From assembly GCA_977020255.1 (NCBI GenBank), contig CDROCS010003532.1, positions 1 through 64,000 of the forward strand: a stretch of DNA of 64,000 nt. Direction: 5' to 3'. Positions 11,156-62,737 of this stretch are shown here, one piece after another (positions within the stretch are counted from its first letter, which is position 1; every line of letters begins with the position of its first letter). Both the position numbers and the translations under genes were made by a program. The notes beneath the pieces are model-generated. The model saw only the letters and a program-made list of their open reading frames with translations, was not told the origin of the DNA and did not search any database. The stretch is from Obrimoposthia wandeli. Taxonomy: Eukaryota.

Positions 11156-11415
11156 ATGGTATTTTTATTAAATATTTTCCATATTGTACATTTGTGTTTA
11201 GAGAGAGATAATTTCATTCTACATCGGACAGGCTGGTGTTCAGTGTGGTATGTCAATATGGGAACTGTTTTGTTGTGAACATCAAATCAGTAAAGATGGG
11301 CATTTGGTAGAACGTACACATGAGTGTGAGAATATCGAAACATTTTTTCAAAAGACTGCTTATAATACTTGGGTTCCTAGAGCTCTTTTTGTGGATTTAG
11401 AACCGACAGTGATAG
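11156..11415 (+). CDS. TUBA: Divergent alpha-tubulin, exon 1 (ATG, 11156-11158) and exon 2 (11202-11415); remaining exons not found in window
   Basis: Spliced translation MREIISFYIGQAGVQCGMSIWELFCCEH...TFF...WVPRALFVDLEPTVI. A 43-nt GT-AG intron follows the ATG and a phase-1 GTTAGT donor follows EPTVI; both are known conserved alpha-tubulin intron positions. Confidence 0.85.
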
Positions 11416-11799
11416 GTTAGTGGGCCTTTACATACATAGTAATTTCTTTAATAATTGAATTCAAATACTATATGCAATTAAAGTATAAGAAAATACTATT
11501 TATGTGTGTAATAAAGAATATTTTACAAATGAATGGAAATAAGTTAGGTTAAGTTAATGTTGAGATTCAAAAAATGTAGACTTATCTTGGCAGAACACAA
11601 TTACAGTAATTTTAATAATTTTTATGTTTCTGCTGCATTATAATTATTATTAAAAGTTTTAATTTATAACTGGAAATAATAATTTACTTAAATAATAACA
11701 ATTAAAAAGCCAGTCTAGATGCTAATTTGAAAGTATTCAAATTAAAAATCGATATTTAATTGTGAAAGTACCCAAGAGTCATCTCAATAACTAAATAAT

Positions 11800-16880: not shown

Positions 16881-19800
16881 TTATCTCAACTCTATCTTTG
16901 TACAACAAAACAAGACGAGTAATATTAATATTATAAATCCAATGATCAGTGCCAGTATTGGATTAGCCAATTCTAGAATACCATAACGTATTGCTGGTAT
17001 CCCTTTACTCTTGATGGTTAATATTTTAAATTTATGTGCACTTTGGTTGGACATGTCACTGAGAAGTACTATTTTAGTTTGTCCAAATATGTAGTCTTCA
17101 CATGTGACAACACTAATTCCATAATGTCCATTAAGTGTTTTCATTTCGGTCGCTGGAACTATACACATTCGTACTGGACATCCTTTTACACACATGATCA
17201 TTACGGCTTTACTGTGGGACGTCTTGATTATTTCTAGGGTGTTGTCTAGATTTCTCAAATGTAAATTATATTCGGATAGTGTCATCAATTCGGCTTTACT
17301 GGTTGGCATGGCTTGTAGTACCAATCCAATTACTACTCCGTAGATCAATCCTTGTGCAACGGTGCACAGGGCCTTGACTGTCCTTTTGCAAAGGGTTTTA
17401 ATTATCATTCGTTTGAGAGATATCTGTTTCTGGTTGGATCGTTTTGTTGTCTGTTGTTGTTTTGACATTTCTTCGATTCCAGTTTTTCCGATAATCAACT
17501 GTACCTGTTTACCTTGTATCATCAACTTTCCGAATCCATTTTTGGCGGACAAGCATGTTTTATGTCCTTCCATCGTTTCAATTATCACTCTCTTACTTCC
17601 ATACTCACGTGTTTTGATGACATCGCCGTCGAATATATACGTCGGTCCTTTTGTATCAGCATCTTTTTGTATTTCCTTTACAATTCGTTTTCTTCGCTTG
17701 TATCCGGCGAATGTTGTTGATATTCGGTCAAGTGCGCGCTGTCGGTCAGCTTCGTAATCCATTCGGAATTGATTCAGTATTCTGTTTTGTGGGTAAAATA
17801 TCGCTTCATTTACTATGTTGTCCTCGATCCTTTCGTCTAGATACACAAGTACTTTGTTCGTCGGTCCATTTGGTCTTTTCATCTTTACAAACTGAAATCT
17901 TTTACTGTCGGTTCTCATAGATCGGAGACATTTTCGGATGATCCACACATCAATTAATCCTAACAACACTAATAGCATCATCAGTGCCGGTGTATGGTAC
18001 TGTATGATGTAGTTGTGGATTTCTTTGAACCATGAACTATTTCCGTGGTTGGAGCCTATCTCTTGTGCTCCCGTTATCGGCATTAGACAACTTAACAAGC
18101 CTATCGCTAGCAATCTTTGGTATTGAAAGCTGGGCACTGTTGTTGTAGCTTCATTTGTTTCTCGTTGTTGCTTCCTCTTTTCAGCGTACTTCTCTATTTC
18201 TCGAACGAGTAACGGTTTGAATTTCGTATCTGGTCTATTCTGTTTGATGTAGACCATCGCTTCTTCTGGTGTATGACCATGGTACTCTACCAACAAGGAT
18301 ACACCTATGGTAGGCGCTAACATCGTACCTTTTTTCTGATATATCAGAACGCCGTTTCCTTCTGTGACTTCGGCTTGGATGGTTTGGGTCAATTTCATCA
18401 GATGTTGTTGTGCATCATTTATTTCTCGATTGGAAGCATGTATGTATCGAGTGGTGTCGTCTTCAGTATTTTGACACAGACTGATTATCTCGTTTCCGAC
18501 TTCAACAATATTAATTACTCGGTTGATACTGTGGAACTTTAATCCAGCAGTATCTATATCTCCTGGATAACATAAAAATACTTTTGGCATTATCTGCGTG
18601 ATTTTGTCGACTCCGGCTAAGAATAACCCGGTCAATGATAATGCTTGGAGGAAATTCTTTTCCTTTGGATCCTCAGGGATGTCGTCCATCCGTCTTTGTT
18701 CTTGCAACATAAGTTGGTAATTTGACAACTGTCCCAAAAAATTAAGATTTGGGTTAGCAATACTTCTTCTCTCCTGTAGGTATTTCAGTGCTTCTAGTAC
18801 CTGCATTCGTCTAGTCTTTATTAGATATGCTAATACTAGGGTTGCTGATCGAGAGATTCCTTTCTGGCAATGTACCAACACTTTTCCTTGGTTTCGGAGT
18901 TCTCTGTGAAGTATTTCGTTTGTTTCTACGAACCATTCGAGAAGATTAGCGTCCATTGAGTCTTTTACTCTTAATGTCATAGCTCTGATTGTCTGGCATT
19001 GTGATTTGTGATTCATTGTAACATTGATCACGTATGTTATCCCTTGTTCCAACAGTTTCTTTTCATCTGTTGCATCTTCCACATTTCCGAGGTATAACTT
19101 ATCTGGAATGATCTCACTCATTGGTTGCATTAATTCTGACTCTTCAAGTTTTAGTCTTTCTAATCTCTTCTCTATCTGTTCGTCGATGTTAGTTAGTTTT
19201 GCCAGTTTCTTTCCTCTCAGCATTCGTATTGCTGGAGAGATATTCATCTTTGTCTCTGATGTCTGTTCCTTTGTTGAGTCTTCTTCCGACTCGGTTTCTT
19301 CTGCAGATTTAATTCGTCTTTCTTGTATATTCTGTTTCACGAATTCTATGTTTTGTCTTTTTCTGCTCTCTTTAGCGAATTCAACCTCCATGGTTTTTCC
19401 GAATCGCTCTATTATGTTATCTTCGGATTCTGTTGATTCTGTATCGTTACTTTCAGGTTCGCTGTCTTGACTAGACTCGCTCGAAGGGTATTCTGGTATG
19501 TCTGTCTGAACTGAAATTAATGAAGGGGTTATAATAATTGGATTGACTGCCCCTGCGTATTTGTGAATCGGATACGGTATTACACTATCTTTAAGTATCT
19601 CAACTTGGAACTGTGCTCCATAGCACATGACAATTGTTTCCAATTTACCCATGATGGACAATCCATCAAAATAGGTAACATTCAGCTTAGATATCGGTGT
19701 TTTCGCATAATTAATTAAATTTACTCGTATCTCGGTTGATGACGGCCATCGATTTTTTAGTAAAATTATAATTTCGTCGTTTATCGATGTAATTACACTT

Positions 19801-21695
19801 GGCGCGGATGATACTATTTCAGCATGATATTTCGGTTGAATTGAGGTTGTCACTTGTTCTCGGATCATATTGATTCTTTGTGGTTTTTTATTTTTAGCTT
19901 CCCACTTCTGGTATCCGCTGTCAATGCGTAACTCTGCCGTTGCTTTGATGATTTTATTGTTGGTCACTTCCGGTTGGGTTGGCGAATGAAATCCTTCTAT
20001 TACGCTCAACCTTACAGATACTTCCGTTTGATCTGTGTCTAACCGGTGAGATTCCGGTATGCAACATACAATTGTCTTTCCGTCAAAGTATTTGGTGTCC
20101 ATCTGACAAATTATCTTTTCAGTGTCTGCGTCGACTAAATGGACTCTCATTAGGTCTCTTTTCCCATGTGAATTACGTAATACCATTATTACATCGTGGT
20201 ATTCTTGTTTGAGTCTTTTTGGTGTACCATGCAGTATGTGACCACCGGCCGGTTCCTTTTCTTCCTGACTGGCTAGTCCTGCTTCAGTACTGTCATAGTT
20301 CTGCCATGCAACTATGTTTGGTGTCAATGTGATTTCGATTATCACTTTCTCAGTCGTAAACACATTGGAATTTTGATGAAGCGCTGCGACTAGTGTATTT
20401 CCGTCGTAGTATGACACTCTAAGTTCGCACAGAAATTCGTTTGTCAGTGCATCTTTCACAATGACGTCTTTCGCCACATCTGTTGGTTGTGTTTTTTCGA
20501 AAACAACTATTATCTCTTCATCTTCTTCCAATATCTCTTGTGGTGCGATGTGTCGGATTACTTCCTTTTCCTCTTGGTGCTTCATTCTGAGCATACCAAT
20601 TCTCGCTGGTTTTTCCTCGCTACCACTCGTCATCATGTTTATGTAGTTCCGATCACTTACCATTCGTGTAAGTTTAATGGTATTGGTATTCGGCTTCAAT
20701 TTCTGTGATCTTAACTCATATCGTGATGCATTATCTTTATTTGGTACTAATTTACATCGATTTGCATGTACAATCATCGGTTCCTTGTTCCGATTCTCCT
20801 CGTTGATTACTTTCAAATTTGTTGAGGTTGTCTGGATCACCTTGTATGGTCCTTTGTATGGTCTATGAAGTTTAAACGATAGACCTGGTTCGATGACTGG
20901 ATAAAATATCATCACTTGATCTCCGACTCTAAATTCATGTGGTTTTGCCTTCTTGTCATATTGTTCCTTGTAACCTTCTTGATTGAATTTCAACTTCAAT
21001 CCAGCTTTGGTCCAAGCATCCTGCAATCTTTCCTTCATGACGACAATGTATTGTTCAGTTTCTAGATACTGAGATGTTGGCTCGGTCCACTTCAGATCCA
21101 TCGGCATATTGTTCTGTCTGAGATACATCAGATAGAATGGTGTGTGACCCGTCGCCTCTCGAACTGAGTTCCTGTAAGCATATAAACATGAAGGTAAATA
21201 TTTATCCCAATCCTCTTGCTTGTCTGAGCAATAGGATTGTACCATCATACATAAAGTTTTATTAAACCTTTCTACTAGACCATCTGTTTGTGGGTGATAT
21301 GGTGAAGTTTGTAACTTCATGATTCCGAATATCTTCGATACTGCTTTTATGACTTCTCCAGTGAAGTTCTTACCTTGATCCGTTAACAACTTTCTAGGCA
21401 CTCCGTATCGAAATATTATCTCTTCCACTAAGATTTGCGCTATTGTTTCAGCTTTCTGGTTCTGCATGGGATATGCTTCTACCCATCTTGTCATGTAATC
21501 CGTAAATACTATGACGTACTTGTTTCCTTTACTTGATTCTCTCAATGGTCCCAATATATCCATTGCTGTGAATTCCATTGGTGCCAAAGGAACTGGCATC
21601 GGTTTCAGTGGAACTTTAGTACGAGTTCCAGTGTCTTTTCTGGTTAAACATACTACATTGTTTACACCATTGTGTAATGTCGTCTTCCATACCAT
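16881..21695 (-). CDS. pol: Integrase core + GPY/F, 3 IPT/TIG-like repeats, DUSP, pseudo-DUSP and membrane modules (C-terminal part of the polyprotein; joined to pol across a frameshift at ~21654)
   Basis: MDILGP / TDQG / ERFNKTL integrase catalytic motifs; KGPY; HCQKGISRS at 18846-18872; several hydrophobic segments near the C-terminus. Confidence 0.9.
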   Translation of the reverse strand: MVWKTTLHNGVNNVVCLTRKDTGTRTKVPLKPMPVPLAPMEFTAMDILGPLRESSKGNKYVIVFTDYMTRWVEAYPMQNQKAETIAQILVEEIIFRYGVPRKLLTDQGKNFTGEVIKAVSKIFGIMKLQTSPYHPQTDGLVERFNKTLCMMVQSYCSDKQEDWDKYLPSCLYAYRNSVREATGHTPFYLMYLRQNNMPMDLKWTEPTSQYLETEQYIVVMKERLQDAWTKAGLKLKFNQEGYKEQYDKKAKPHEFRVGDQVMIFYPVIEPGLSFKLHRPYKGPYKVIQTTSTNLKVINEENRNKEPMIVHANRCKLVPNKDNASRYELRSQKLKPNTNTIKLTRMVSDRNYINMMTSGSEEKPARIGMLRMKHQEEKEVIRHIAPQEILEEDEEIIVVFEKTQPTDVAKDVIVKDALTNEFLCELRVSYYDGNTLVAALHQNSNVFTTEKVIIEITLTPNIVAWQNYDSTEAGLASQEEKEPAGGHILHGTPKRLKQEYHDVIMVLRNSHGKRDLMRVHLVDADTEKIICQMDTKYFDGKTIVCCIPESHRLDTDQTEVSVRLSVIEGFHSPTQPEVTNNKIIKATAELRIDSGYQKWEAKNKKPQRINMIREQVTTSIQPKYHAEIVSSAPSVITSINDEIIILLKNRWPSSTEIRVNLINYAKTPISKLNVTYFDGLSIMGKLETIVMCYGAQFQVEILKDSVIPYPIHKYAGAVNPIIITPSLISVQTDIPEYPSSESSQDSEPESNDTESTESEDNIIERFGKTMEVEFAKESRKRQNIEFVKQNIQERRIKSAEETESEEDSTKEQTSETKMNISPAIRMLRGKKLAKLTNIDEQIEKRLERLKLEESELMQPMSEIIPDKLYLGNVEDATDEKKLLEQGITYVINVTMNHKSQCQTIRAMTLRVKDSMDANLLEWFVETNEILHRELRNQGKVLVHCQKGISRSATLVLAYLIKTRRMQVLEALKYLQERRSIANPNLNFLGQLSNYQLMLQEQRRMDDIPEDPKEKNFLQALSLTGLFLAGVDKITQIMPKVFLCYPGDIDTAGLKFHSINRVINIVEVGNEIISLCQNTEDDTTRYIHASNREINDAQQHLMKLTQTIQAEVTEGNGVLIYQKKGTMLAPTIGVSLLVEYHGHTPEEAMVYIKQNRPDTKFKPLLVREIEKYAEKRKQQRETNEATTTVPSFQYQRLLAIGLLSCLMPITGAQEIGSNHGNSSWFKEIHNYIIQYHTPALMMLLVLLGLIDVWIIRKCLRSMRTDSKRFQFVKMKRPNGPTNKVLVYLDERIEDNIVNEAIFYPQNRILNQFRMDYEADRQRALDRISTTFAGYKRRKRIVKEIQKDADTKGPTYIFDGDVIKTREYGSKRVIIETMEGHKTCLSAKNGFGKLMIQGKQVQLIIGKTGIEEMSKQQQTTKRSNQKQISLKRMIIKTLCKRTVKALCTVAQGLIYGVVIGLVLQAMPTSKAELMTLSEYNLHLRNLDNTLEIIKTSHSKAVMIMCVKGCPVRMCIVPATEMKTLNGHYGISVVTCEDYIFGQTKIVLLSDMSNQSAHKFKILTIKSKGIPAIRYGILELANPILALIIGFIILILLVLFCCTKIELR

Positions 21696-23778: not shown

Positions 23779-24129
23779 TTAGTTTATTTGTCTGTTTGAT
23801 GTGCTATCCTTCAATCTTGGATCTTGTAAATCAATACTTATCCCTTTAAGTTGTGATAGTACATCCATTCCTAAAATTGTAGGTTCAGGACATTCTTTCA
23901 TGATTCTAACTGGTATAGTGATCGTATTACGTCCAATTATAAATGTACACGGTAATATTCCCGTCACTTTTACAGGGTCTCCATTGACCGATACCAAGAA
24001 TTCATCTGGTTCTGCCATTGTTCGTTTCTGTTCCTCTGTCAGACAATCTTCACTTACTATCGAAGCTACAGCACCTGTATCAATTAAGGCTTCTACTCTT
24101 AAATTATTTACTCTAATGATAGCTGCTGG
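23779..24129 (-). CDS. Second aspartic protease, in frame with but bounded by TGA (24130-24132) and TAA (23779-23781)
   Basis: Translating past the ORF1 TGA gives PAAIIRVNNLRVEALIDTGAVASIVS...ILGMDVL (DTG at 24073-24081). Confidence 0.85.
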   Translation of the reverse strand, partial: PAAIIRVNNLRVEALIDTGAVASIVSEDCLTEEQKRTMAEPDEFLVSVNGDPVKVTGILPCTFIIGRNTITIPVRIMKECPEPTILGMDVLSQLKGISIDLQDPRLKDSTSNRQIN

Positions 24130-27100
24130 TCACTGTGCTCCATTTATATTTCCCATATGGTATATTGTATTTATCGAATTATTACACTCTGTCGGTCCAC
24201 TTCCTTTGTTTGGATAGTGAAATCTAATATTTCTCACTTGTCGATCTATTATTCGTCGACAAATCGGACATGATACCATTTCCTTCGCACATCTCCGACA
24301 TGTTCTTACATGTCCGCATGGTAAAAAGGCAACTTCTATTTTGTTGACCATGCAAACTGCGCATTCCGGATCTTCTAGTACGTATTCTAGTTCATTTATG
24401 TACTCTTTCTCTTTTGTTTCAATTGTACTGTCATCTTTATCTTTCAGTAATTCAAAAATTGATCCGTATCCATTTCGCGTAGTTTTTATTTTTAATTCTA
24501 CCAAATCTCTGATTCTTTCTGCTTCTTTTGGATATAACCTTCTCACGAATGACACTACCGGTGTGTCTTGTTGAGCCAAAATCTCTTTCCGTGTGATTTG
24601 GTATTCGATTATACATTCGGTTTTCTGTTCTTTTTGCTTTATTTTGTTTTTTAACATACAAAACTCGCAAAATTCATGATGTAAAATTTTCTTAGGTAAC
24701 TCAAGAGTATATCTGTCGATAATTCGTTCTTTTTTACACTTGTGGCATTTAATTACGTCTTTACCATCCTTTTTTATAGCAAAAAGTCCCTTTTTTGCCA
24801 ATTTTTTAAGTCTTGGATCTTCGAAAGTTATTTCTCGATATTGTTCGTCACATTCGTTCACTTCTCGCATGACTTCGAATATATCTTCAATTCGGCTATT
24901 TGTTATTACTCTACCTACTATTAGAGCTGATTTTCCTTTTGGAATCTCGTCACTGTTATCGAAATCGGGTGCTTTTCCCATTTGGATTTCTGGTACGTTT
25001 GAAGTTTTCAGTTTCAAAAGAAATGGACAATTTGGTGCATCTCTTTTATGACGTTTCATTGGGTTTTCATTGTTTTCCCACTCTCTAAACTCTACTCTAC
25101 ACCATACGCATCGTACTTCTTCCTCAGAACCATAACTATTTGTCGCGTTTAACATTTGTAAACCTGTTCTTGCCATTTTACGTGCCATTTCTTTTGAATA
25201 GTACAGTTCTAATATATTTCGTCTTTTTTTCTCGAATCTCATGGGATCCTTTTCTGACAGATTCACATATGTTATTTTCCTCCTCGTCATCTCTTGTGGT
25301 CCGAGGTTTACGTTTTTGTAGTGAAGTATCGACTTTACTAGCGCTTCCTGTTTTTTGTCTTGGTACGAATTTCCCATACGGAACGTAGTGTATTTTTCCT
25401 TTTCGACTATAGGTCCTCTCAACATTTTTATCTCTCTCACTGAACTGTCATTCTTATAACTCTTGTTGTTTGGTAATATAATTATTCCTTCAAACATTCT
25501 TATTACGTCCATCCCAATCATGACTGGACTACCGCAATCTGTTAATATTCTAGCATTTAACTGCAATGCTCTCCCATCGATATTCAACGAACATTTCAGT
25601 GTTCCTTCCGACACTACATCTGTACCATTCACGTTAACAAATGTCTGTTTTCTAGGACATACTTCTCTTAATTCTTTTGATGACAAGATTTCTTTACTCA
25701 GTACTGATACTGCGGATCCAGTATCAACTTCGGCAAGATATTCTCTTCCGTTCAATGTTACTGCTACTTGTGGTGGAGCATTTGGATTCTCATTTGGATT
25801 CTCATTTGATATCCTAGACTTCAGAATTCTTCTGGAATTATCTTTTTTGTCTTTTTCCTCTGCTTGTGGAATCTCACTGTAGCTCACTTTAGGCCATCTT
25901 ATCATTAAGATGCCTCTCTTGAACTTTTCCTTCTCTTCCTTTAGTTCCTTCATTGGATATAGGTTTAACGCCACTTCTTCCTTGTCTGGTAACGGAATCT
26001 TTGGTTTTCCTGGTATCTTTGCATATACTCCTGGGCTATCATTATCGTCGTCGTTGTCGTCTCGATAATTTCTTGGGTCTCGCATCATGGTTCTCGTTTG
26101 ATGTTGTTCCTTCTTGAGGGCTCGCAACTCGTTCTCGTGATGATGGTGCATTAGATATTTTGCTAAAAATGGAAAACATCCAATTATAAGTTGCCAGGTG
26201 ATTCCGGTTATCCTGTATAAACTATACGTAGACAACACCTGGGCTATAATTACCTGCACAAATTTAATTATAACATAAATACCTATGATACCCGAAAATA
26301 GTTGTCCTAAAACAAGGAATTTCCCCCACATCTTTCTAAGTGTCTGATGTGCTGCTTCCTTGAAATGACTTGGCGATAATAACATATCAAAATTCGCATA
26401 TCTAGCTCCTGGCGGTAATGCTCGATGTACCATCTCCGTAAGTACTCTGGCTCTTTTTACTGGAAACATTATTTCGTTCCATGCCGCTTTTAAGTCTTTT
26501 TCATTGTACAATCCTGCGTTCTCCATATTTTCCACCGCTTCGGATTTCATTTTACCTTTGAGATTCGTCATTTTTATCATCGCTGGGGTTTTCGTTGGCT
26601 TTCGATCAGGTAACATTATCCATAGATCATTCGTCATCTGATATTCAGATGCCATTATATTAGAGCAGCTGATTTCTTTAGTTGGAGTGTCTTTTGGAAG
26701 TATTATTCTCGTGATTGGTTCAACAAAGAGTTCTTGTAAATTATACGTTACTGCCAATTCACTCGTACATCGGTCTGTTTTTCTCAACTGTACTTCTACT
26801 TTATTACACTTGTAAGTATACAATACTTCTCCCATGGTTTTAGCAAATACTCCTTCATCCAAGGGTAATAATGGTGCTACCATGTCTGGATTCGTAATAG
26901 CTAATGCTAACTTTGTTCTTACGATCTCTTTGTTTAGCTGGCAATCTCTTTCGATCATCATCCGATATAACTGTTCCATTTGCATCAATCCTTTATGATA
27001 ATAAAAATCAATTTTATTATTAAAATACGTGTGTAGCTGCATATCTCTAGGTTTTAGCTTGGTTTCTGCCAATGCTATTGTTTCTTTGGACAAAACTATT

Positions 27101-30100
27101 CCAGGATAGTTTGTAGTACTAACAGTCATTCCGCATCGCGCTTTGTTTCTCTTTTTAATAAATATCAATCCTTCTTCTATTGATGTTGCCATTAACAGTG
27201 TAGGTGTCTTTGTCATTGGAATTGGTCTTGTTTCATTGAGCAATCCTTTTCCAACTTTATTATACAGGAACCCTTCTCCATCTTTATTATACAGGAATCC
27301 TTTTATTTTATTAAAGCTAATCTCTTTCAAAAATACTAAAGAGCATTGCTTCGGATTCACGTGATACACAATTGTGGATTCACCTGTAAAACAAGATGCA
27401 TCTGTCATTTTACATTCTGGATACTTCATCATTCGTTGTGTCTTTTTATCAAAATTGGCAGTCCATGATTTTAATTCAATTTTGTAAGTTACGTCCATTA
27501 CTAACTCTGTTACTTTGGTTCCACGCACGTTTTTTGTTCCTCCGTCACAAGATCCATCAGCCCATCGTTGTCCAACTCTCGTGACTGTTTCGTATCGTCT
27601 CACTCCAATTTTTACAACAGGTTTGTAATTCTTGTCTATTTCTATTGTTCCTGTACGAAATGCGTCTTCGCAATCTCTCGGAAAAACCTTATGTGCTTTG
27701 TACGGTGTGGTAGGTGTGATTTCCGACATAAAACTTCTATGGCCACAATAGAATTCGTGATAACTTGAATGAACTGAACATTCTTTCACTTCTACTTGTA
27801 CTTTATCAACATCCTGATACACAAAGTAGTTTTCAACACCTTTAACTTCTAATTTTGACTGTTGTGATTCTGGACAGTCTTCGCTGTCAAGCAGTGAATA
27901 CTTTTGTCCCATCTTTGGTATGCTACAGTCGTATGCTATCAATCCTGATGCCTGTTGCATTCCCATGAACATTACTAACATCATCATCATCATTGTTGTG
28001 GACATATTTGGTTGATTGTTTCTTTCTTTTGGACGGTATTGTTTATTTTCTCTTTGACGATTCTCATGACATTGTTCGTCATCGTCTTCGTTCATTTCCA
28101 CAATGGTTTTAGCGTAGTCACTTAATTTTGCCCAACCTCCGTTTTCGTCAATTCGTCTTTGTAACACATTCTCGATCAAATACATCGCTTCATTTATTCC
28201 TTGTTTGACTTCGTGAGGTTGGCTCGTTCGTTCCGTCAATTGGAAACATAGATATGTGATTGCTGTAATTAACTTTTTATTTGTAGTCTGGCTTCCACAT
28301 AATCTCGCTAAAACTTCACCGTCATAAAATCTATCTATCGATGCATGGTATACATGATTCGCGGTCATTCTCTTTACTGCAGACATCTGTGATCTAACTG
28401 CTTTAGTCAAATTGTCTGTTATATCGGTTGTTTCATCTCTGTACATTTTGAACAACTTCGGCTTCACTTGCCTGAGAATTCCCGTAAGTATATCTTTACT
28501 ACTTGGAGCTTCTGAATTCATATCACCTCTGATATCTTCATTCCTCTCTGCACTATACTGCTCTAATGACGCTGCTAACTGTCCAATGCTTAGATGTCTC
28601 TCTTCATCAGTTTGTGGTGCAGTTAGAACATTTCGTAATATACTTCCGTCTTTTCTAGGTCTTCCAGGTCCTCTTCGAAAATACTGATACTCAGTTTGAT
28701 TCTCTCCTGGATCATACGGTTCACCATTATACTGTATCTCTTGACTTGGTCCTTCTTCATGGCCAATCTCTTCATTTTGTCGCATCATCTGCTCTGCTTG
28801 TCTATCTTTGTATGCAGCATGCCAAATTGGTGAATCTAAATCTACAATTTCGGAGATTTCGTCTTCTCCTACTAGTTGGGTTACGTTTTCGTTTTGTCTC
28901 ACTTGGTTAGCTGTATTCGCGACTTCATCTTGTCTGATTTGAATTATATCTGGTTCTGGTGGTACCTCGACCACTGGAGTTGTCAACTCATTTTCTAAAT
29001 TCATGTCTTGTAATTCTGCTACGTACGGTTCTGGTGTGGATGTCTTGTTCCAAGCTTCAGCTACATCGTTATCTCCGCTTTCGCTTGAACTGTCTAAAAT
29101 TTCTATAGGCGATTTTATCATTTCTAATGCAGTGTTTAATATCTCCGTTAATCCTTCATTATCTACTAACTCTTGACGTCCTACAGTGATGATATCAATT
29201 TTTTCTTCTAATTCGTTTCCTATCGGATATCCACACTCGACTGGTACGTCCTCATCATCTAGTGATCTCCCTTTATAATGGAACAACATATTCATTCCAT
29301 AAATTTCAAGTTTCTCGGCCAACTTTTTTCGAATAGTTTTCATTGTCTGATACACGTTAAGTTTTTCATGTATTATCTGTCCGGAAATTAATCGAAGCGA
29401 AATTTTCATCGTTCCCTTTTGGTTTGATCTCTGTACGTAACGACCATATCCTTTCAATAATCCTCGTGGTATTTCTTTGTAACCCAAGTTATCATGACTA
29501 AGTTTAACCAATTCTGCTCGCACTTCTTCCAATCTGTGCACTTTAATTGTTTGCAATTTGGCCAAAACTTCTGGAGCTTCACTCGTTTCATCTAACGGTT
29601 GATTCAACGTCTCCTTAGCTTCACTAATTATCTTTTTTACATTTTCCATACTCGTAGCATTTCTTGCTGCTTCTACATGATCAGTCATAGGTTGTGCGTT
29701 ACACGTTTTCTCTATTGGTGTCTCATACGCTTCTAGTATTTGATTCATTAAATCATTCATCTCTTCTCTCGAGTGTAGACTTTTTTCTTGTTTCGACAAC
29801 GTAGATGAATTCGCCATCTTTGTATGTGGTGAATCTTTAATTATTCCCAACATTCGTTCAAATTTACTATCACTATCTTCAAAATCTATTTCGCGTCGAA
29901 GTTCGGTCTCGCGATTCCTATCGCTGTCATCGTTTACATAACTAAAATTTCCTTTCGGTTTCGGCGAACTCTCACGACTATTCGTCTTGTCAACATTATT
30001 ATTATTATATCTACCGGAATTATTATATCTCTCAGCTCCTTGCTGTCCTACGTAATTATTGTATCTCTCAGCTCCTTGCTGTCTGTCTGCATAATTATTG

Positions 30101-31662
30101 TATCTACCTGGTGACTGTTGTCTATCTGTATACTGATTATTCGGTCTCCATGGCTGTGGAGTATATCCACCACCTCTATTCCATGGCGGAGGTGAATTAT
30201 ATCCTCTATAATTATTTCCAAAATTATTATTACCGAAATTATTATTTCCAAATCTGTTAGTTCCGAACTCCTTACTTCTCGTACAATCTCTCGAATAGTG
30301 ACCCATTTGTTTACACGTGTAACACATTATTCTCCCTCGAATATCTATCTTATTTTGTTCATCTTCGAACTGCACTCGACGACTATTCTGTCTATTATCA
30401 TAGCGTCCTCTAAAATCATTTCTTCGGAAATTCGATTCAAAACCGCTTCCTCGATTATTGAATCTTCCGTCACTACTTCCTGTATTATTCCCAAATCGAG
30501 AGTCACTTCGCTCTCCTCTGTTTGCGCTATAATTCCTATCGTCTCCTCTCCAAGGTTGGCGATTTCCTGAATTATCTCTATTAAATCTATTCCTGGAATC
30601 ATCTCTATTTCTATTCCACGAATCATTACTATTTCTACCTCTTGAATCATCTCGATTCCTGTTCCAAGACTCACTATTATTTCTACCTCTCGAATCATCT
30701 CGATTCCTACTTCGGAAATTATCTCTGTTTCCGTTACTGGATTCATCTACTTTTTCAAACTTATTTTGTCCGTAATTTCGATTCTGAAAATTACTCGGTT
30801 CTGTTTTATTCACAAATACCTTTGTCTTATCGTCGTCACCTGCAGTCATTGCGTAAATTGCCAATGCTGCGTTATTTTTTATATTTTTCTCAATCTCTCT
30901 CGCCTTTCGCAAGGCGTTATCAAAATCATTTGTATCCGATACTGCTAATAACACTTTAATATCCTTTTTCAATCCTCCTCTAAATATATCTAACAAAACT
31001 TCTGCCATTTCATTTTGGTTCCACTCATTTTCCGCTACTTGTGCTTCTTGAGCCACAAGACTACCGTCCTGATTTCTCATTATTCTTCTTGGGTACGCTC
31101 TTGCGGCCAAGGTTCTCAACACATACGCGTATTCATTCACGCCTTCGTCATGTTTCTGTTTCCGTTCTCTCATGATTCGCTTATTTACTTTTGCTAAGTC
31201 TCCCAATACTAATTTTCCAATAAAAGCATTTTCCAACGTTGGCCAGTCTAAACGTTCTGCTTCTGTCAAGTGTTTATACACTTCAAGTGCTAATCCGGTT
31301 AAGTGTGCCTGCACTCGGACACATTTTTCTTTATCGTTCCATCCTTGAACATCTGCACAACTTGAATATTCTGCGAGGAAGTCACAAATACTTTCCTCAT
31401 CTCCTTTAAACTTTGTAATCTGCAATGATCCTGAAAAGTTGGGTCTCAACGTCGCATTTAAGGCTTGTTCCAACTGTTCGGCATTCATGTCACCTACATT
31501 ATTTCCTGCATTATTATCTACTTGAGCTCCTGGGTGAGCCATATTTTCAGCTATATCCTCTTCAACTATTTCTTCAATATTATTCAATTGAAAGTCCTCA
31601 ATCACTACTGGATTGGCAATTTCAAATTCTTCTGGGTTTATGTCACCAAATAATTCAGTCAA
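24130..31662 (-). CDS. gag: 2510-aa polyprotein: Gag-CCHC, ubiquitin-like domain, AT-hook, Bcl-2-like domain, chuvirus/gB-type glycoprotein, protease 1, BIR, degenerate BIR, RING
   Basis: CYTCKQMGHYSRDC (30283-30324); Ubl-like 29175-29409; RRGPGRPRK 28651-28677; IDENGGW ~28122-28150; signal + LIAYDC 27925-28005; TM ~26230-26325; DTG 25717-25725; BIR 25015-25240; C3HC4 RING 24255-24363. The listed start is TTG; the first ATG is at 31542. Confidence 0.92.
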   Translation of the reverse strand: MTELFGDINPEEFEIANPVVIEDFQLNNIEEIVEEDIAENMAHPGAQVDNNAGNNVGDMNAEQLEQALNATLRPNFSGSLQITKFKGDEESICDFLAEYSSCADVQGWNDKEKCVRVQAHLTGLALEVYKHLTEAERLDWPTLENAFIGKLVLGDLAKVNKRIMRERKQKHDEGVNEYAYVLRTLAARAYPRRIMRNQDGSLVAQEAQVAENEWNQNEMAEVLLDIFRGGLKKDIKVLLAVSDTNDFDNALRKAREIEKNIKNNAALAIYAMTAGDDDKTKVFVNKTEPSNFQNRNYGQNKFEKVDESSNGNRDNFRSRNRDDSRGRNNSESWNRNRDDSRGRNSNDSWNRNRDDSRNRFNRDNSGNRQPWRGDDRNYSANRGERSDSRFGNNTGSSDGRFNNRGSGFESNFRRNDFRGRYDNRQNSRRVQFEDEQNKIDIRGRIMCYTCKQMGHYSRDCTRSKEFGTNRFGNNNFGNNNFGNNYRGYNSPPPWNRGGGYTPQPWRPNNQYTDRQQSPGRYNNYADRQQGAERYNNYVGQQGAERYNNSGRYNNNNVDKTNSRESSPKPKGNFSYVNDDSDRNRETELRREIDFEDSDSKFERMLGIIKDSPHTKMANSSTLSKQEKSLHSREEMNDLMNQILEAYETPIEKTCNAQPMTDHVEAARNATSMENVKKIISEAKETLNQPLDETSEAPEVLAKLQTIKVHRLEEVRAELVKLSHDNLGYKEIPRGLLKGYGRYVQRSNQKGTMKISLRLISGQIIHEKLNVYQTMKTIRKKLAEKLEIYGMNMLFHYKGRSLDDEDVPVECGYPIGNELEEKIDIITVGRQELVDNEGLTEILNTALEMIKSPIEILDSSSESGDNDVAEAWNKTSTPEPYVAELQDMNLENELTTPVVEVPPEPDIIQIRQDEVANTANQVRQNENVTQLVGEDEISEIVDLDSPIWHAAYKDRQAEQMMRQNEEIGHEEGPSQEIQYNGEPYDPGENQTEYQYFRRGPGRPRKDGSILRNVLTAPQTDEERHLSIGQLAASLEQYSAERNEDIRGDMNSEAPSSKDILTGILRQVKPKLFKMYRDETTDITDNLTKAVRSQMSAVKRMTANHVYHASIDRFYDGEVLARLCGSQTTNKKLITAITYLCFQLTERTSQPHEVKQGINEAMYLIENVLQRRIDENGGWAKLSDYAKTIVEMNEDDDEQCHENRQRENKQYRPKERNNQPNMSTTMMMMMLVMFMGMQQASGLIAYDCSIPKMGQKYSLLDSEDCPESQQSKLEVKGVENYFVYQDVDKVQVEVKECSVHSSYHEFYCGHRSFMSEITPTTPYKAHKVFPRDCEDAFRTGTIEIDKNYKPVVKIGVRRYETVTRVGQRWADGSCDGGTKNVRGTKVTELVMDVTYKIELKSWTANFDKKTQRMMKYPECKMTDASCFTGESTIVYHVNPKQCSLVFLKEISFNKIKGFLYNKDGEGFLYNKVGKGLLNETRPIPMTKTPTLLMATSIEEGLIFIKKRNKARCGMTVSTTNYPGIVLSKETIALAETKLKPRDMQLHTYFNNKIDFYYHKGLMQMEQLYRMMIERDCQLNKEIVRTKLALAITNPDMVAPLLPLDEGVFAKTMGEVLYTYKCNKVEVQLRKTDRCTSELAVTYNLQELFVEPITRIILPKDTPTKEISCSNIMASEYQMTNDLWIMLPDRKPTKTPAMIKMTNLKGKMKSEAVENMENAGLYNEKDLKAAWNEIMFPVKRARVLTEMVHRALPPGARYANFDMLLSPSHFKEAAHQTLRKMWGKFLVLGQLFSGIIGIYVIIKFVQVIIAQVLSTYSLYRITGITWQLIIGCFPFLAKYLMHHHHENELRALKKEQHQTRTMMRDPRNYRDDNDDDNDSPGVYAKIPGKPKIPLPDKEEVALNLYPMKELKEEKEKFKRGILMIRWPKVSYSEIPQAEEKDKKDNSRRILKSRISNENPNENPNAPPQVAVTLNGREYLAEVDTGSAVSVLSKEILSSKELREVCPRKQTFVNVNGTDVVSEGTLKCSLNIDGRALQLNARILTDCGSPVMIGMDVIRMFEGIIILPNNKSYKNDSSVREIKMLRGPIVEKEKYTTFRMGNSYQDKKQEALVKSILHYKNVNLGPQEMTRRKITYVNLSEKDPMRFEKKRRNILELYYSKEMARKMARTGLQMLNATNSYGSEEEVRCVWCRVEFREWENNENPMKRHKRDAPNCPFLLKLKTSNVPEIQMGKAPDFDNSDEIPKGKSALIVGRVITNSRIEDIFEVMREVNECDEQYREITFEDPRLKKLAKKGLFAIKKDGKDVIKCHKCKKERIIDRYTLELPKKILHHEFCEFCMLKNKIKQKEQKTECIIEYQITRKEILAQQDTPVVSFVRRLYPKEAERIRDLVELKIKTTRNGYGSIFELLKDKDDSTIETKEKEYINELEYVLEDPECAVCMVNKIEVAFLPCGHVRTCRRCAKEMVSCPICRRIIDRQVRNIRFHYPNKGSGPTECNNSINTIYHMGNINGAQ

Positions 31663-42999: not shown

Positions 43000-45364
43000 C
43001 TATATTGTTTATATTATCATCTAAGTTTCCTTATTGAAAAATATAATGCCAGAGCTGCTGTTGATGCAATACAAAAATCTATAATGAATATTTGGATATA
43101 ATTTTATTTATTTGCGTTCGATTTCTATATTTTCTAATAACTTGTGATCTAACCAATATCTCAATATTATCTCTCGTAGTATCATTACTTTTCATTCTGA
43201 TAAAAATTTGTTTACTATTAATTTCCCAGAACAAAGTTGTCAACACAACAATCCCCTTCATTGTCAGTGTTTATTATTATTATTATTATTATTATTCATT
43301 TGAAAAAATTGATTTAAACAAGTTTGTTTATAGTTTATAGAAAAATATAACAAAATGTATATTTTCTAAAATCAATTTTACAGTATATTGATCATTTAAA
43401 TTTCTCAATACCAATATCATAATTTTACCACTGGAAAATACATTTATACATAGTGGTGTAAACCTAAAACATCTTAGTGCCGAAAAAATTTCAGGTTCAA
43501 ACATGTATTATTCTTTCATTTTCTTTGCAATTTTATAAAGAATTTTTTGTTTTTTGAGATATTGTTTGAGACTGTGATTGATTGTATGGTTTCCGATTTT
43601 AATTCCAAAGGGTAAATTTATCTCATTCAATGGTGTATGGCATCTCATAACACGACAACTTCCTAGAAACTTTTAAAATTAAAATAAAATAAAAAGCAAC
43701 CTGATGGAAAATAACAACTGTGAAATCATCCAAATTTTTCACATAATGTCTTGGCTTCCACTCATTGAATGGTAAGTGCAAAATATAATTTTCTATTCTT
43801 CCGTTATAATTTATATTTTCGAGTTTCATTAGACTAAAATTGATTTCTGTAAATTTTTCTTTTTATATGTCTGAACTTGCTATTTTATTTCTTGTCTTAA
43901 TTCTTATTTCTTTATTCTCATTTCTTGTAAATATCTTGCAAACCTATTAAAATTGGATAATTGAAATATAAAATATTTCTTCCAATCAAATTCAATGTTA
44001 ACAATGGATTCAGACCAATCAAATTCAATGGTTTAGTTATATTAACCAATTAGAATATGACTTTGCTACAAATTAGTATAAATGTATTTTCCATTCGAGA
44101 ACAAATCATTATAAATACATTCATCAAAGACAATTATGATTGATGGAAGATAGCCCACAAATACTGAGCGACGATGAAGATTTAGAAATGTTTGAAGACT
44201 CGGAAAATAATATGTATGAAGAAGTGAAACAATATTTCAAATACAAAGTAAGGTTCTTGAAGAAGGATCAACTAATTTCTTTAGTAAATCCTGTAATAAT
44301 TGAAAGAAGAAAGTTTAGTTATTAACTATCAAATATTCAAAAACCATATTTTCAATATCTTAAACAGAAAGTTGATAAAGAAGTTCCAAGATTTACTTTC
44401 AATAAGAACGAATTTTATATCCATGGAGCTTATGCAGTATTTTAAGTGATTATGGAAGAGAAATATATGTTGATGCACATCCGAAAAATATGCAATGGAT
44501 TGTAACAATTTAGCTTTTACAAGGATGAAATTAGAACAAAGCTGCCTATATGGAAAATTAAACGTGCTCATATCCTTATGTTTTGACTATTTCTTTCCTT
44601 TTTGTTATTTTATTTTTACCATGTTTCTTTTATTTGTATATTCCTGCATGTAATAAATTGTAATCAGTTTTAATTTTTTATTTCATAATATTTGTAAAGT
44701 GTTTAAATATATATATATTTTATAAACATTGTCTTTTAATTAGTTTCTTAATTTTTAGAATGAATCCTCTTCTGAGCTATGTACAAATTTTTTATTCTCC
44801 GGAAATTAACAACATCTGATCAATTTAAAAATATTTTGGAATTTTAAATACCTGGTTATGCATATGAAGGAAATCTTTTTCAGATTGAAAGTTATCCCAG
44901 TCTGGTTTTTAGAGATGACCTTGGTTATTTGATTGCTCCACTTTTAGATGAAGAAATATGGAATATTTCACTACGACTTAATGAATATTATTCTGATATC
45001 GATGAAAAAAATACAATCTCTTTGAAATTTGAGTGAAGCTAAAATGGTGTTTTACATGAGATAATTTTAATAAATGTATTTAAATTAAATTTTGTCTTAT
45101 TTTGTTTTTTTTTATCATAAAAATATATAAGTCTAACCAACATATTTTTGTCATCCTAACATGCATTAAATGTAGCCATTTATTCATACAAAATTATCAT
45201 CTAAAATTTCGTCTACAACAGGTTGATCCTGCTGTCTGAATTTATGTGGTCTCTTATAATAACTTTTTGAAGTCAATACTTGTAGGAAATTTCACTTCTC
45301 ACATACACAGTTTTAAAGAACAGACTCCTAAGGGAGTGGATTAGACCAGACACATCCACCTACT
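43000..45364 (-). mobile_element. Polinton/Maverick terminal segment A (decayed; inverted homolog of 58898-62700)
   Basis: Terminus reads AGTAGGTGGATGTGTC on minus from 45364. It carries disrupted homologs of the 158-aa, 153-aa, TBP-like and 93-aa ORFs of segment B. Confidence 0.75.
43340..43829 (-). pseudogene. TBP-like gene of Polinton A (frameshifted, 38-nt intron 43700-43663)
   Basis: MKLENINYNGR...FTVVIF|GSCRVM...FEPEIFSAL...NVFSSGKIMIL. Confidence 0.7.
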
Positions 45365-59472: not shown

Positions 59473-60633
59473 CCACACCACACCACTCTTCGCCCACATA
59501 ATTTAGAGGAGCAAAAAAACAAAATACGAGACAAAATTATTTTTCAAAATATTTATTAAACATAAAACAACATATTGGCTTCACTCAAAGTCCAGAGAGG
59601 CTGCATTTTCTCGTCATCAGCAAAATATCCATTCAGACGTATTGAGATATTCCATAGTTCTTCATCTAGAATTGGAGCAATCAAATATCCTAGATCATCT
59701 TTAAAATCCAGACTGGGATCAGTTTCAAGCTCGAAACAATTTCCTTCATATACATAATCAGGAATGTAAAATCCCAAAATATTTTTCAGTTGATCAAAAT
59801 CAGTTGTTGCTAAAATTTCGATGACTCCACTTTTGATATTTTCACAGGATTCATAACTCGTATAATTTGATGCCTCTTTAATATATTACGAAATTCTTTC
59901 TGGATAATAAAAATTTGCTACACATCTTTTATCCATTCTAAAATAAGGAAACTGATTAAAAACAATGTTTATAAAAAATACACATAAGATACAAATAAGA
60001 TACAAATAAAACTGTTTATTAAATGAAAGAAACATAGTAAAACCGATTACAATTTATTACACACAAAAGTTAAAACATAGAAATATTAGGCACGTTCAAT
60101 TTTCCACATAGGCAACTTTGTTCCCATTTCATCTTTCTTGTAACCATAAAGTCGAATTGTTACAGTCCATTGCTTCTTTTTCGGAAACGCATCAATATCA
60201 ACATATCTTCCATAGTCATCTAGAAATGCTTCGGATATAAAATTCGTTCTTATTGAAAGTAAAATTTGGAACTGCCTTTTCTATTTTCTGTTTAAGATAT
60301 TGAAAATCAGTTTCCTGATAGCCGATCTAATCCACCCCCTTCCCTACTGTCCTTTAAAACCGTGCATGTGTGTGGAGTGAAATTTCAATTTACACCATAT
60401 TTGTTAAACTTTTACCATGAATCTCAAAAGTGGTTAGAGAAGACCACGAGAATCCATATTGACCCCGACGGAGACGAGATTTCAAATATTACTACTATTT
60501 TTAAGAAAGATTTTAGATTAATAAATTACACATGTTAAATATCTATGTCAGTTTTAGAATTTATCGGTCAGATTTATATAATTTAGAGAAGCAAAAACAA
60601 AATACGAGACAAAATTATTTTTCAAAATATTTA

Positions 60634-61038
60634 TTAAACATAAAACAACATATTGGCTTCACTCAAAGTCCAGAGAGGCTGCATTTTCCCGTCATCAGCA
60701 AAATATCCATTCAGACGTATTGAGATATTCCATAGTTCTTCATCTAGAATTGGAGCAATCAAATATCCTAGATCATCTTTAAAATCCAGACTGGGATCAG
60801 TTTCAAGCTCGAAACAATTTCCTTCATATACATAATCAGGAATGTAAAATCCCAAAATATTTTTCAGTTGATCAAAATCAGTTGTTGTTAAAATTTCGAT
60901 GAGATATTTTTTCTCCACTTTTGATATTTTCACAGGATTCATAACTCGTATAATTTGATGCCTCTTTAATATATTACATAGTTTTCCTTTTGAAATTCTT
61001 TCTGGATAATAAAAATTTGCTACACATCTCTTATCCAT
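60634..61038 (-). CDS. Polinton orphan ORF (~134 aa from MDKRC)
   Basis: Intact ORF; disrupted homologs at ~59556-59937 and ~44760-45060. Confidence 0.6.
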   Translation of the reverse strand: MDKRCVANFYYPERISKGKLCNILKRHQIIRVMNPVKISKVEKKYLIEILTTTDFDQLKNILGFYIPDYVYEGNCFELETDPSLDFKDDLGYLIAPILDEELWNISIRLNGYFADDGKMQPLWTLSEANMLFYV

Positions 61039-61170
61039 TCTAAAATAAGGAAACTGATTAAAAACAATGTTTATAAAAATACACATAAGATACAAATAAG
61101 ATACAAATAAAACTGTTTATTAAATGAAAGAAACATAGTAAAACCGATTACAATTTATTACACACAAAAG

Positions 61171-61647
61171 TTAAAACATAGAAATATGAGCACGTTCAAT
61201 TTTCCACATAGGCAACTTTGTTCCCATTTCATCTTTCTTGTAACCATAAAGTCGAATTGTTACAATCCATTGCTTCTTTTTCGGAAACGCATCAATATCA
61301 ACATATCTTCCATAGTCATCTAGAAATGCTTCATCGGCTCCTCGGATATAAAATTCGTTCTTATTGAAAGTAAAATTTGGAACTGCCTTTTCTATTTTCT
61401 GTTTAAGATATTGAAAATCAGGTTTTTGAATACCTGATAGATAGTAGCTGAACTTTCTTCTTTCAATTGTCACAGGATTTACTAAAGCAATCAGTTGAGC
61501 CTTCTTCAAGAATCTGACTTTGTATTTGAAATATTGTTTCACTTCTTCATACATATCCTTATCCGATTCTTCAAACATTTCTTCGTCATCGCTTAATACC
61601 CGTTGGCTATCATCCATTGTTGATAATTGTCTTTGATATGAATGCAT
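61171..61647 (-). CDS. Polinton orphan ORF (158 aa, acidic N-terminus)
   Basis: Intact ORF; homolog at 44140-44585 and partial copy at ~60080-60310. Confidence 0.65.
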   Translation of the reverse strand: MHSYQRQLSTMDDSQRVLSDDEEMFEESDKDMYEEVKQYFKYKVRFLKKAQLIALVNPVTIERRKFSYYLSGIQKPDFQYLKQKIEKAVPNFTFNKNEFYIRGADEAFLDDYGRYVDIDAFPKKKQWIVTIRLYGYKKDEMGTKLPMWKIERAHISMF

Positions 61648-61896
61648 TTACTGTGATTTGTCCTCCAATGGCGCATTCTTTTATACTAATTTCTAACAAA
61701 GACATGAATCTCATTGGTTAATATAACTAAAGCATTGAATTTGATTGGACTAAATCTATATTAAAAATCAAAATTGATTGGAAGAAATATATCATCCAAT
61801 TATAATAGGTTTGCAAGATAATTACAAGAAACGTGTAATAAAAAAGCAGGTTCAGACATATATAAAGAAGATTTTACAGAATACAATTTCAGTCTA

Positions 61897-62435
61897 ATGA
61901 AACTCGTAAATATAAATTATAAAGGTAGAACATAAGATGATGTTTCGTACTTACCATTCAATGAATGGAAGCCGAGACAATATGTAGAAAAGTTTGACAA
62001 TTTCACAGTTGTTATTTTTCCTACAGGTTAGTTTTTTATTTTATTTTCATATTGAATTCTTTAGGAAATTGTCGTGTTATGGGATGCAAAATACCAATGC
62101 TTGGGTTCAATTTACCATTTGGAATTCAAATCACTGCAATACAATCAATCACGATTTCGGCTAATCTCGGGAAACAGATAAATCTTTTTAAAACTGCAGA
62201 GAAAATGAAAGAAGAATGCATGTTTGAACCAGAAAATTTTCCTGCTCTCAGTTATTTGAAGTTTAAACCGCTATGTGTAAATATATTTTCCAATGGTAAA
62301 GTTATGATATTGGGATTGAAAAATTTTGATTATCCAGACATAGTTGATTTGATTTTAGAAAATATATCTTATTACATCTTGTTATCTTTTTTCTATAAAC
62401 AAACCCCGTTTAAACTTATTGTTTCAAATGAATAA
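61897..62435 (+). pseudogene. TBP-like gene (two-repeat core, ~166 aa when spliced; intron 62027-62064; nonsense TAA at 61933)
   Basis: FTVVIFPT|GNCRVMG and FEPENFPALSYLKFKPLCVNIFSNGKVMILG match the two TBP repeats. The TAA aligns with GAA in copy A. Confidence 0.75.
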
Positions 62436-62700
62436 TACTATAAATAGAGACAATGAAGTGGATCGGCTTGCCGATGAAATATTTTCTGGAAAAATTAGGA
62501 GTAAAGAAATTTTATCAGAATTAAAAAATAATGATATAACAAGAGATAACATTGAAATATTGGTTAGATCACACGTTATTCGAGAATTTAGAAATCGTAC
62601 ACAAATAAATAAAATTATAGCCAAATATTCATTAATTAATTTTTGTATTTCATCTACAATAGCTCTAACATTGTACATTTCAATAAGGAAACTTCTATGA
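62419..62700 (+). CDS. Polinton orphan ORF (~90 aa)
   Basis: Homolog at 43020-43261 on minus. Confidence 0.55.
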   Translation: MFQMNNTINRDNEVDRLADEIFSGKIRSKEILSELKNNDITRDNIEILVRSHVIREFRNRTQINKIIAKYSLINFCISSTIALTLYISIRKLL

Positions 62701-62737
62701 TAATATAAACAATATTAAAAATGAACGAGTATATGCA

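Follow-up and report, generated by a model that had tools for sequence, protein, structure and literature searches.

Analysis of a 64,000-nucleotide stretch of the Obrimoposthia wandeli genome (contig CDROCS010003532.1, positions 1 to 64,000; hereafter the window) indicates that it probably carries the envelope gene of a giant Burro-type Ty3/Gypsy element, and that the approximately 5,360-residue polyprotein of this element likely threads the endoplasmic reticulum (ER), with signal peptidase freeing the N-terminus of the envelope glycoprotein (G) while Gag and the enzymes stay cytosolic. One minus-strand frame of 2,545 codons (31767–24133; all element coordinates below refer to this strand) holds a CCHC zinc knuckle (residue 482), G, a protease (residues 2001–2090), and BIR and RING domains. 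The complete domain order in this frame is capsid-like region, CCHC knuckle, weak ubiquitin-like domain, weak Bcl-2-like domain, signal, ectodomain, transmembrane (TM) segment, aspartic protease, BIR, and RING. An initial annotation of this DNA had placed a chuvirus/gB-type glycoprotein between Gag and protease; the frame order bears this out, but G does not directly adjoin Gag, because approximately 770 residues with the ubiquitin-like and Bcl-2-like domains separate the zinc knuckle from the signal of G.

The region encoding G begins with a Met-rich internal signal-peptide-like segment, recognized by its hydrophobicity and conservation (28005–27943, MSTTMMMMMLVMFMGMQQASG, first residues MSTTMMMM), which ends in A-S-G at a predicted cleavage site directly before the LIAYDC start of the ectodomain (27942). 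The ectodomain (27942–26320) comprises 541 residues with 14 conserved Cys and one N-glycosylation sequon, and includes the motifs GSCDGG (27555), NKIDFYY (27018), GEVLYTYKC (26832), and FVEPITRI (26727). It is followed by a membrane-proximal helix and the main TM segment, assigned by hydrophobicity (26319–26233); the strongest hydrophobic segment starts at 26289 (Kyte-Doolittle [KD] 19-mer value 2.32). Motifs, signal, Cys-patterned ectodomain of approximately 540 residues, and TM, with no stop on either side, were all found in the 2,545-codon frame as initially annotated. The ectodomain matches the Pfam family PF24664 (Monjiviricetes_fusion) with 315 bits (cut-off 27) and an E value of 9e-94, so the identity of G is not due to chance, and all 14 Cys are kept in 93–100% of the homologues (alignment A1). 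In the Atlas comparison, the ectodomain reached 0.96 to Monjiviricetes clusters and 0.92–0.94 to gB and rhabdovirus G, with a recognition value under the threshold of the tool. By sequence family and conserved Cys pattern, G is thus a class III fusion glycoprotein. The predicted ectodomain model (pLDDT 89) contains the whole five-domain class III fold with a long central helix (residues 324–371), and a structural search with it returned gB as the top five matches, the thogotovirus, rabies, and Chandipura glycoproteins ranking lower. This predicted gB-like fold and the PF24664 match agree with the class III, chuvirus/gB-type identity given at first.

The same arrangement is present in many other copies of the element. 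The pattern across the signal/G junction occurs at a minimum of 2,414 places in the 1.35-Gb assembly, a count that may include haplotype duplicates; 2,132 of these have the exact junction spacing, and the frame is kept in 98 of the first 100 listed. As siblings we studied the 20 best-scoring of 116 scored copies, which are 93–98% identical to the window. The identity between paired long terminal repeats (LTRs) over their last 330 bases was 99.1–100% in 8 of 10 pairs and 96.0% and 68.8% in the other two, and two further copies gave no pair. The window copy is decayed: its frame ends after RING (stop 24132–24130), and Pol is further broken by a stop at 23781, a frameshift near 21654, and a stop at 16883. 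The frameshift is private to the window, and the three stops recur in 1 of 19 (24132), 0 of 18 (23781), and 0 of 11 (16883) siblings; the stop at 15452 is present in 10 of 10. Every sibling has scattered breaks of its own, none of them family-wide. In the first part of the polyprotein, stop-free joins were found between knuckle and Bcl-2-like domain in 7 of 19 siblings, Bcl-2-like domain and signal in 17 of 19, signal and TM in 13 of 19, TM and first protease in 12 of 19, and first protease and BIR in 15 of 19. The corresponding counts for the rest are 10 of 18 (BIR-RING), 12 of 18 (RING-second protease), 11 of 18 (second protease-reverse transcriptase), 7 of 16 (reverse transcriptase-integrase), 4 of 13 (integrase-phosphatase), and 3 of 9 (phosphatase-last TM), and the sibling copies include open frames of 4,244, 4,335, and 5,301 codons. 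Because the breaks are private to copies and each neighbouring domain pair is joined stop-free in some of them, the family encodes one frame of approximately 5,360 codons from the ATG at 31542. The siblings thus carry protease (PR), IAP module, and Pol in one frame on the tail of G, as had been claimed for the window, where the frame is interrupted; the continuity from G to Pol rests on the sibling copies.

We then compared variants among these copies (18 siblings and the window, two error-rich copies being left out). For variants common to at least 3 copies, the ratio of nonsynonymous to synonymous changes (pN/pS) was 0.05 in the query-biased first part of G (3 nonsynonymous, 16 synonymous) and 0.06 in the rest of G (2 and 8, respectively). 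The same test gave 0.11 for Gag, 0.03–0.09 for the spacer, and 0–0.01 for Pol; there were no shared stops, and singletons gave 0.12–0.43. G is kept by purifying selection in the replicating lineage. Selection of this kind could in principle maintain G for a job other than fusion, such as an ER assembly anchor, budding, or a receptor block against related viruses, with the element spreading only inside cells. Two positions in the putative fusion loops, assigned by inference from the model, that are usually hydrophobic or aromatic are polar, and the atypical residues in the first of these loops would suit such a job; receptor interference has also been proposed for chuvirus-derived glycoproteins in mosquitoes (PMC7642597). 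However, both loops hold other hydrophobic residues close by, each of the 14 Cys is retained in 93% of homologues or more, the predicted model covers all five domains of the fold, and G is selected as strongly as Gag. We therefore regard a non-fusion role as improbable.

The embedded arrangement extends beyond this family. Among database proteins 29–42% identical to G, G and then a protease lie in one chain in 3 of 7 proteins of one set, in P0010, and in 9 of 13 of another set, and P0007, P0014, and P0018 carry a Gag marker, G, and protease all in one chain. P0029 resembles the Anakin type, with DUF5641 before G. A second, compact family in the same genome (L106–L115; five copies, for example on G000 contigs C2132 and C1876) has the order Gag-G-PR-reverse transcriptase (RT)-integrase (IN), its G being 42% identical; no ubiquitin-like, IAP, or phosphatase matches were found in it. 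No Gag-G break is common to all five copies, and two of them have a one-base indel at nearly the same site near the signal. The in-frame placement, for which a check in siblings had been proposed, is therefore conserved in siblings, distant relatives, and the second family, with no break common to a family. An unrooted FastTree built from 51 G sequences groups all 16 embedded ones in a single clade (support 0.995), separate from 35 free-standing ones, which were the first 35 that passed the length filter. This fits a single capture of G in the embedded lineage, with no donor nameable. Polyproteins of the lineage commonly contain at least two aspartic protease domains (25767–25498 and 24117–23851 in the window; P0007, P0008, P0010, P0012–P0014, and P0018).

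The membrane topology of the polyprotein was considered in the light of these relatives. All 17 embedded relatives examined have a hydrophobic segment ahead of the AYDC-type start, and in 6 of them the stretch from 40 to 15 residues ahead of the cleavage site contains no Met, so that the segment before G appears to behave as an internal signal. The relatives lacking such a Met also argue against another origin of G, namely its production, additionally or mainly, from a spliced or internally started RNA beginning at the Met-rich signal; Gag and Env would then not be made 1:1, and the frame would be open only for Pol read-through. The signal does begin with Met, has five more in a row, and is identical in 18 of 20 siblings; moreover, three RING open reading frames (ORFs) behind the polyprotein stop require another transcript or re-initiation, and retroviral env is normally spliced (PMC10309623). 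Nevertheless, a G-Pol chain read through from Gag would carry the same signal and TM and so face the same topology problem, and we consider this origin possible but rather unlikely. For Gag and Env to be made 1:1, splicing, internal initiation, and leaky translocation would all have to be absent, with unspliced RNA as sole template and every chain translocated.

Leaky translocation would result in a dual topology, in which some chains stay out of the ER and are cut by the element proteases into cytosolic particles and the rest give G, thus tuning Gag:Env. This would be compatible with the position of the signal 1,180 residues into the chain, with its modest hydrophobicity, and with its Met run, which varies by whole codons in 8 of the 100 first-listed copies. 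However, the hydrophobic segment is kept at this site in all 17 relatives, many of them having a stronger one, and untranslocated G with its 14 Cys would be expected to misfold in the cytosol, which makes a leaky signal a doubtful explanation.

On the other side of the ectodomain, one strong TM (KD 1.8–2.5) is followed by a weaker hydrophobic segment (KD 1.0–1.7) with Pro and basic residues (26205–26149 in the window, with Pro and Lys), which also occurs in free-standing G proteins and is likely a cytosolic amphipathic helix. If this segment spanned the membrane, PR and Pol would lie in the lumen and the topology first proposed would be wrong. In favour of such a span, the segment is conserved, with KD values of up to 1.7 in some relatives. 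However, it is far weaker than the main TM, holds Pro together with Lys or Arg, and also occurs in free-standing G proteins, where nothing follows it. Furthermore, replication of the element would be impossible with RT and IN in the lumen, but young copies number in the thousands; the signal after integrase would also need a cytosolic N-side. We consider a second membrane passage at this point highly improbable. The internal signal, which is conserved, and the single strong TM agree with the signal-peptidase topology of the initial annotation and with cytosolic PR-IAP-Pol; the second, weaker segment had not been noted there.

A signal-like segment, a domain of 220–340 residues, and a TM were found after integrase in 6 of 6 chains reaching that far (window, second family, P0010, P0012, P0015, and P0022). 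With these, the block PR-IAP-PR-RT-RNase H (RH)-IN would sit on a cytosolic loop tethered at its two ends, the location that replication requires. The post-integrase membrane region of the window (18113–15450) has alternating signal-like and TM segments at 18113, 17993, 17372, 16958, approximately 16690, and 15626, and contains the private stop at 16883 and the family stop (15452–15450). Approximately 3 signal-domain-TM modules are present in the window family (18113–15570). Neither Pfam nor the Atlas gave a match for the post-integrase ectodomains, 4 of 7 of which carry an L-x-P/T-x-T-x-Y/H motif that we take to be one known from fibronectin type III domains. In P0012, one aspartic protease lies behind integrase, just ahead of the second signal.

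The preferred model of a polyprotein threading the ER can be described as follows. Gag and the ubiquitin-like and Bcl-2-like domains would be made in the cytosol, the internal signal would halt at the translocon, and G would pass into the lumen and be cut at A-S-G|L. In flavivirus and hepacivirus polyproteins, the capsid ends in the signal of the next envelope protein, signal peptidase separates the two, and the enzymes are cytosolic. Similarly to the hepacivirus core-E1 junction, the signal would remain after the cut as the C-terminal anchor of the Gag/Bcl-2-like precursor. The TM would stop transfer, the enzymes would fold in the cytosol on the tail of G, and the second signal behind integrase would re-enter the membrane, leaving Pol on a loop with an anchor at either end. 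Proteases of the element itself, one of which directly follows the tail of G, would then free Gag and Pol at the very membrane in which G has accumulated, and the budding particles would carry G trimers and fuse with other cells of the host. Cleavage, release by element proteases, budding, and cell-to-cell spread are extrapolated from known polyprotein processing and are not results. Cellular Bcl-2 proteins carry a C-terminal membrane anchor; in the window, the Bcl-2-like domain (28340–28130) ends approximately 40 residues before the signal of G (28005), which would be such an anchor after cleavage. Much more speculatively, these elements might be enveloped viruses of their host built on flavivirus logic, with up to eight ER crossings in this family, a released gB-type fusogen and, as its receptor-binding partner, a conserved post-integrase type I membrane protein that is likewise released by signal peptidase, a signal doubling as a Bcl-2-like tail anchor, and particles passing from cell to cell.

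The rest of the window copy completes the element. Its 5' LTR (34317–32593) runs TGTT...AACA with internal tandem arrays, and the same terminal motifs delimit both LTRs in sibling copies, two of which show 4-bp target duplications. The LTR interiors (also in the sibling LTRs L071–L090) have tandem arrays that differ widely between copies with 97% identical coding regions, only the ends being common. The primer-binding site (32584–32568), 1 base shorter than in siblings, is complementary to the 3' end of tRNA-Met(CAT) of the same genome; a tandem array of tRNA-Met(CAT) genes with approximately 284-nt spacing at L092 (G000:C2252) is the likely primer source. Gag (31542–30280, from the first ATG of the polyprotein) contains the capsid-like region (Retrotrans_gag, E 0.004) and one CCHC knuckle (zf-CCHC, E 5e-5). 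The ubiquitin-like domain (29400–29230; PF00240, E 0.012) and the Bcl-2-like domain (PF00452, E 0.17) are weak matches; the latter region aligns to the equivalent region of P0007 (pairwise E 6e-8), which itself matches PF00452 at E 0.0015. The first aspartic protease (DTG; 25767–25498; PF13975, E 9e-6) precedes the IAP module (25194–24241), with BIR at 25194–25018 (PF00653, E 4e-11) and RING at 24372–24241 (PF13920, E 2e-11). Beyond RING, four more minus-strand pieces down to 15450 hold the second protease, RT, RNase H, integrase, two phosphatase domains, and the membrane-rich tail. Among these, the second aspartic protease (DTG; 24117–23851; PF13975, E 4e-9) is cut off by the private stops 24132 and 23781, the domain matches for RT, RNase H, and integrase (23187–21291) follow the Ty3/Gypsy order and include the frameshift, and the two dual-specificity phosphatase (DSP) domains (19097–18210) match PF00782 in two stretches (E 4e-40). 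The three separate RING-finger ORFs (15404–13810) are kept in siblings. The window copy lacks a 3' LTR of its own, similarity to siblings, which have both LTRs, ending at approximately 13760; a 47-nt tandem array lies where this similarity stops (13853–13115). With LTRs, tRNA primer site, target duplication, gag, and PR-RT-RH-IN order all present, the element is a Ty3/Gypsy LTR retrotransposon.

Elsewhere in the window, a second LTR of a related subfamily (9580–7852, minus strand; 78–87% identical to the 5' LTR) is not paired with the window copy, and the sequences upstream of both LTRs (35325–34990 and 10773–10408) are 70% alike. A tubulin-like coding fragment lies at 11202–11420 on the plus strand (PF00091, E 7e-12). 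Another repeat occurs as two inverted copies (approximately 76% identical) at 43002–45146 and 59498–62715, and one of the two contains an internal duplication of approximately 1.1 kb.

The initial annotation had treated an env in this position as exceptional, but the gene order is already published. In the giant Burro/GYPSM1 Gypsy elements of dugesiid planarians, env was described in frame between gag and pol in 2019, and the section on these elements reports a single huge ORF (4,873 and 5,140 residues, as against approximately 5,360 here), a Gag with CCHC, ubiquitin/SUMO-like and BCL-2-like domains, env between BCL-2 and PR, BIR, PR-RT-RH-IN, env matches to mononegavirus fusion glycoproteins, thousands of copies, and long LTRs (PMC6431247). 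The long single ORF, env between BCL-2-like domain and PR, and ubiquitin-like, BCL-2-like (both weak), and BIR (strong) cargo suggest a Burro-type assignment, by domain layout set beside that description. The element differs from Burro, as that section presents it, in having one CCHC knuckle instead of two or three, in its size (approximately 22 kb versus more than 30 kb), and in its two DSP phosphatases, two proteases, post-integrase membrane modules, and three RING ORFs; Burro env was likened to gypsy Env, whereas G here is gB-type (PMC6431247). The window ORFs gave no Pfam match to MATH/TRAF or ankyrin domains, which vary among Burro elements, and the relative P0007 has ankyrin. No Pfam match was found in the PR-RT interval (23778–23250), where Burro has a dUTPase-like domain, these Pfam negatives being set against HHpred comparisons in the Burro paper.

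The present analysis contributes evidence that G is under selection, together with a membrane topology open to test, in which two anchors would bracket Pol. In the partly accessible literature that we searched on retrotransposon polyproteins and signal-peptidase topology, neither the topology model nor the post-integrase membrane module was found. The processing of such polyproteins appears undescribed, and at least 2,414 young copies, a selected G, and a defined natural fragment make this a testable system. If the model is true, a retroelement can express an envelope with no separate ORF for env, its enzymes being carried to the budding membrane on the tail of the fusogen. Burro1 is reported, in a 2026 study cited in PMC13465017, to protect planarian stem cells by means of its IAP, and the movement of such elements between cells would for this reason bear on regeneration biology.

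Three further systems can be compared with this element. In Anakin BEL/Pao elements, a chuvirus-derived glycoprotein of the same family was captured by an LTR element of another superfamily, and it lies after the pol domains (PMC7642597). Closer to our element are the gB-type GAG-ENV-POL errantiviruses reported in 2026 from Platyhelminthes, Nematoda, and Bryozoa, with nine flatworm elements listed, six of them from Schmidtea mediterranea (PMC13524379). They have the same order, the same envelope class, and an ectodomain with a signal or TM ahead of it and a TM behind it, and one published flatworm ectodomain fragment resembles G by eye; the parts of that report considered here describe the elements by ORF order, with no polyprotein wording, model of cleavage or Pol location, or planarian tRNA primer (PMC13524379). 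The third system is the flavivirus and hepacivirus polyprotein processing described above (see also PMC5402940). It involves unrelated proteins and a class II fusogen, whereas the element described here is reverse-transcribing and carries a class III fusogen.

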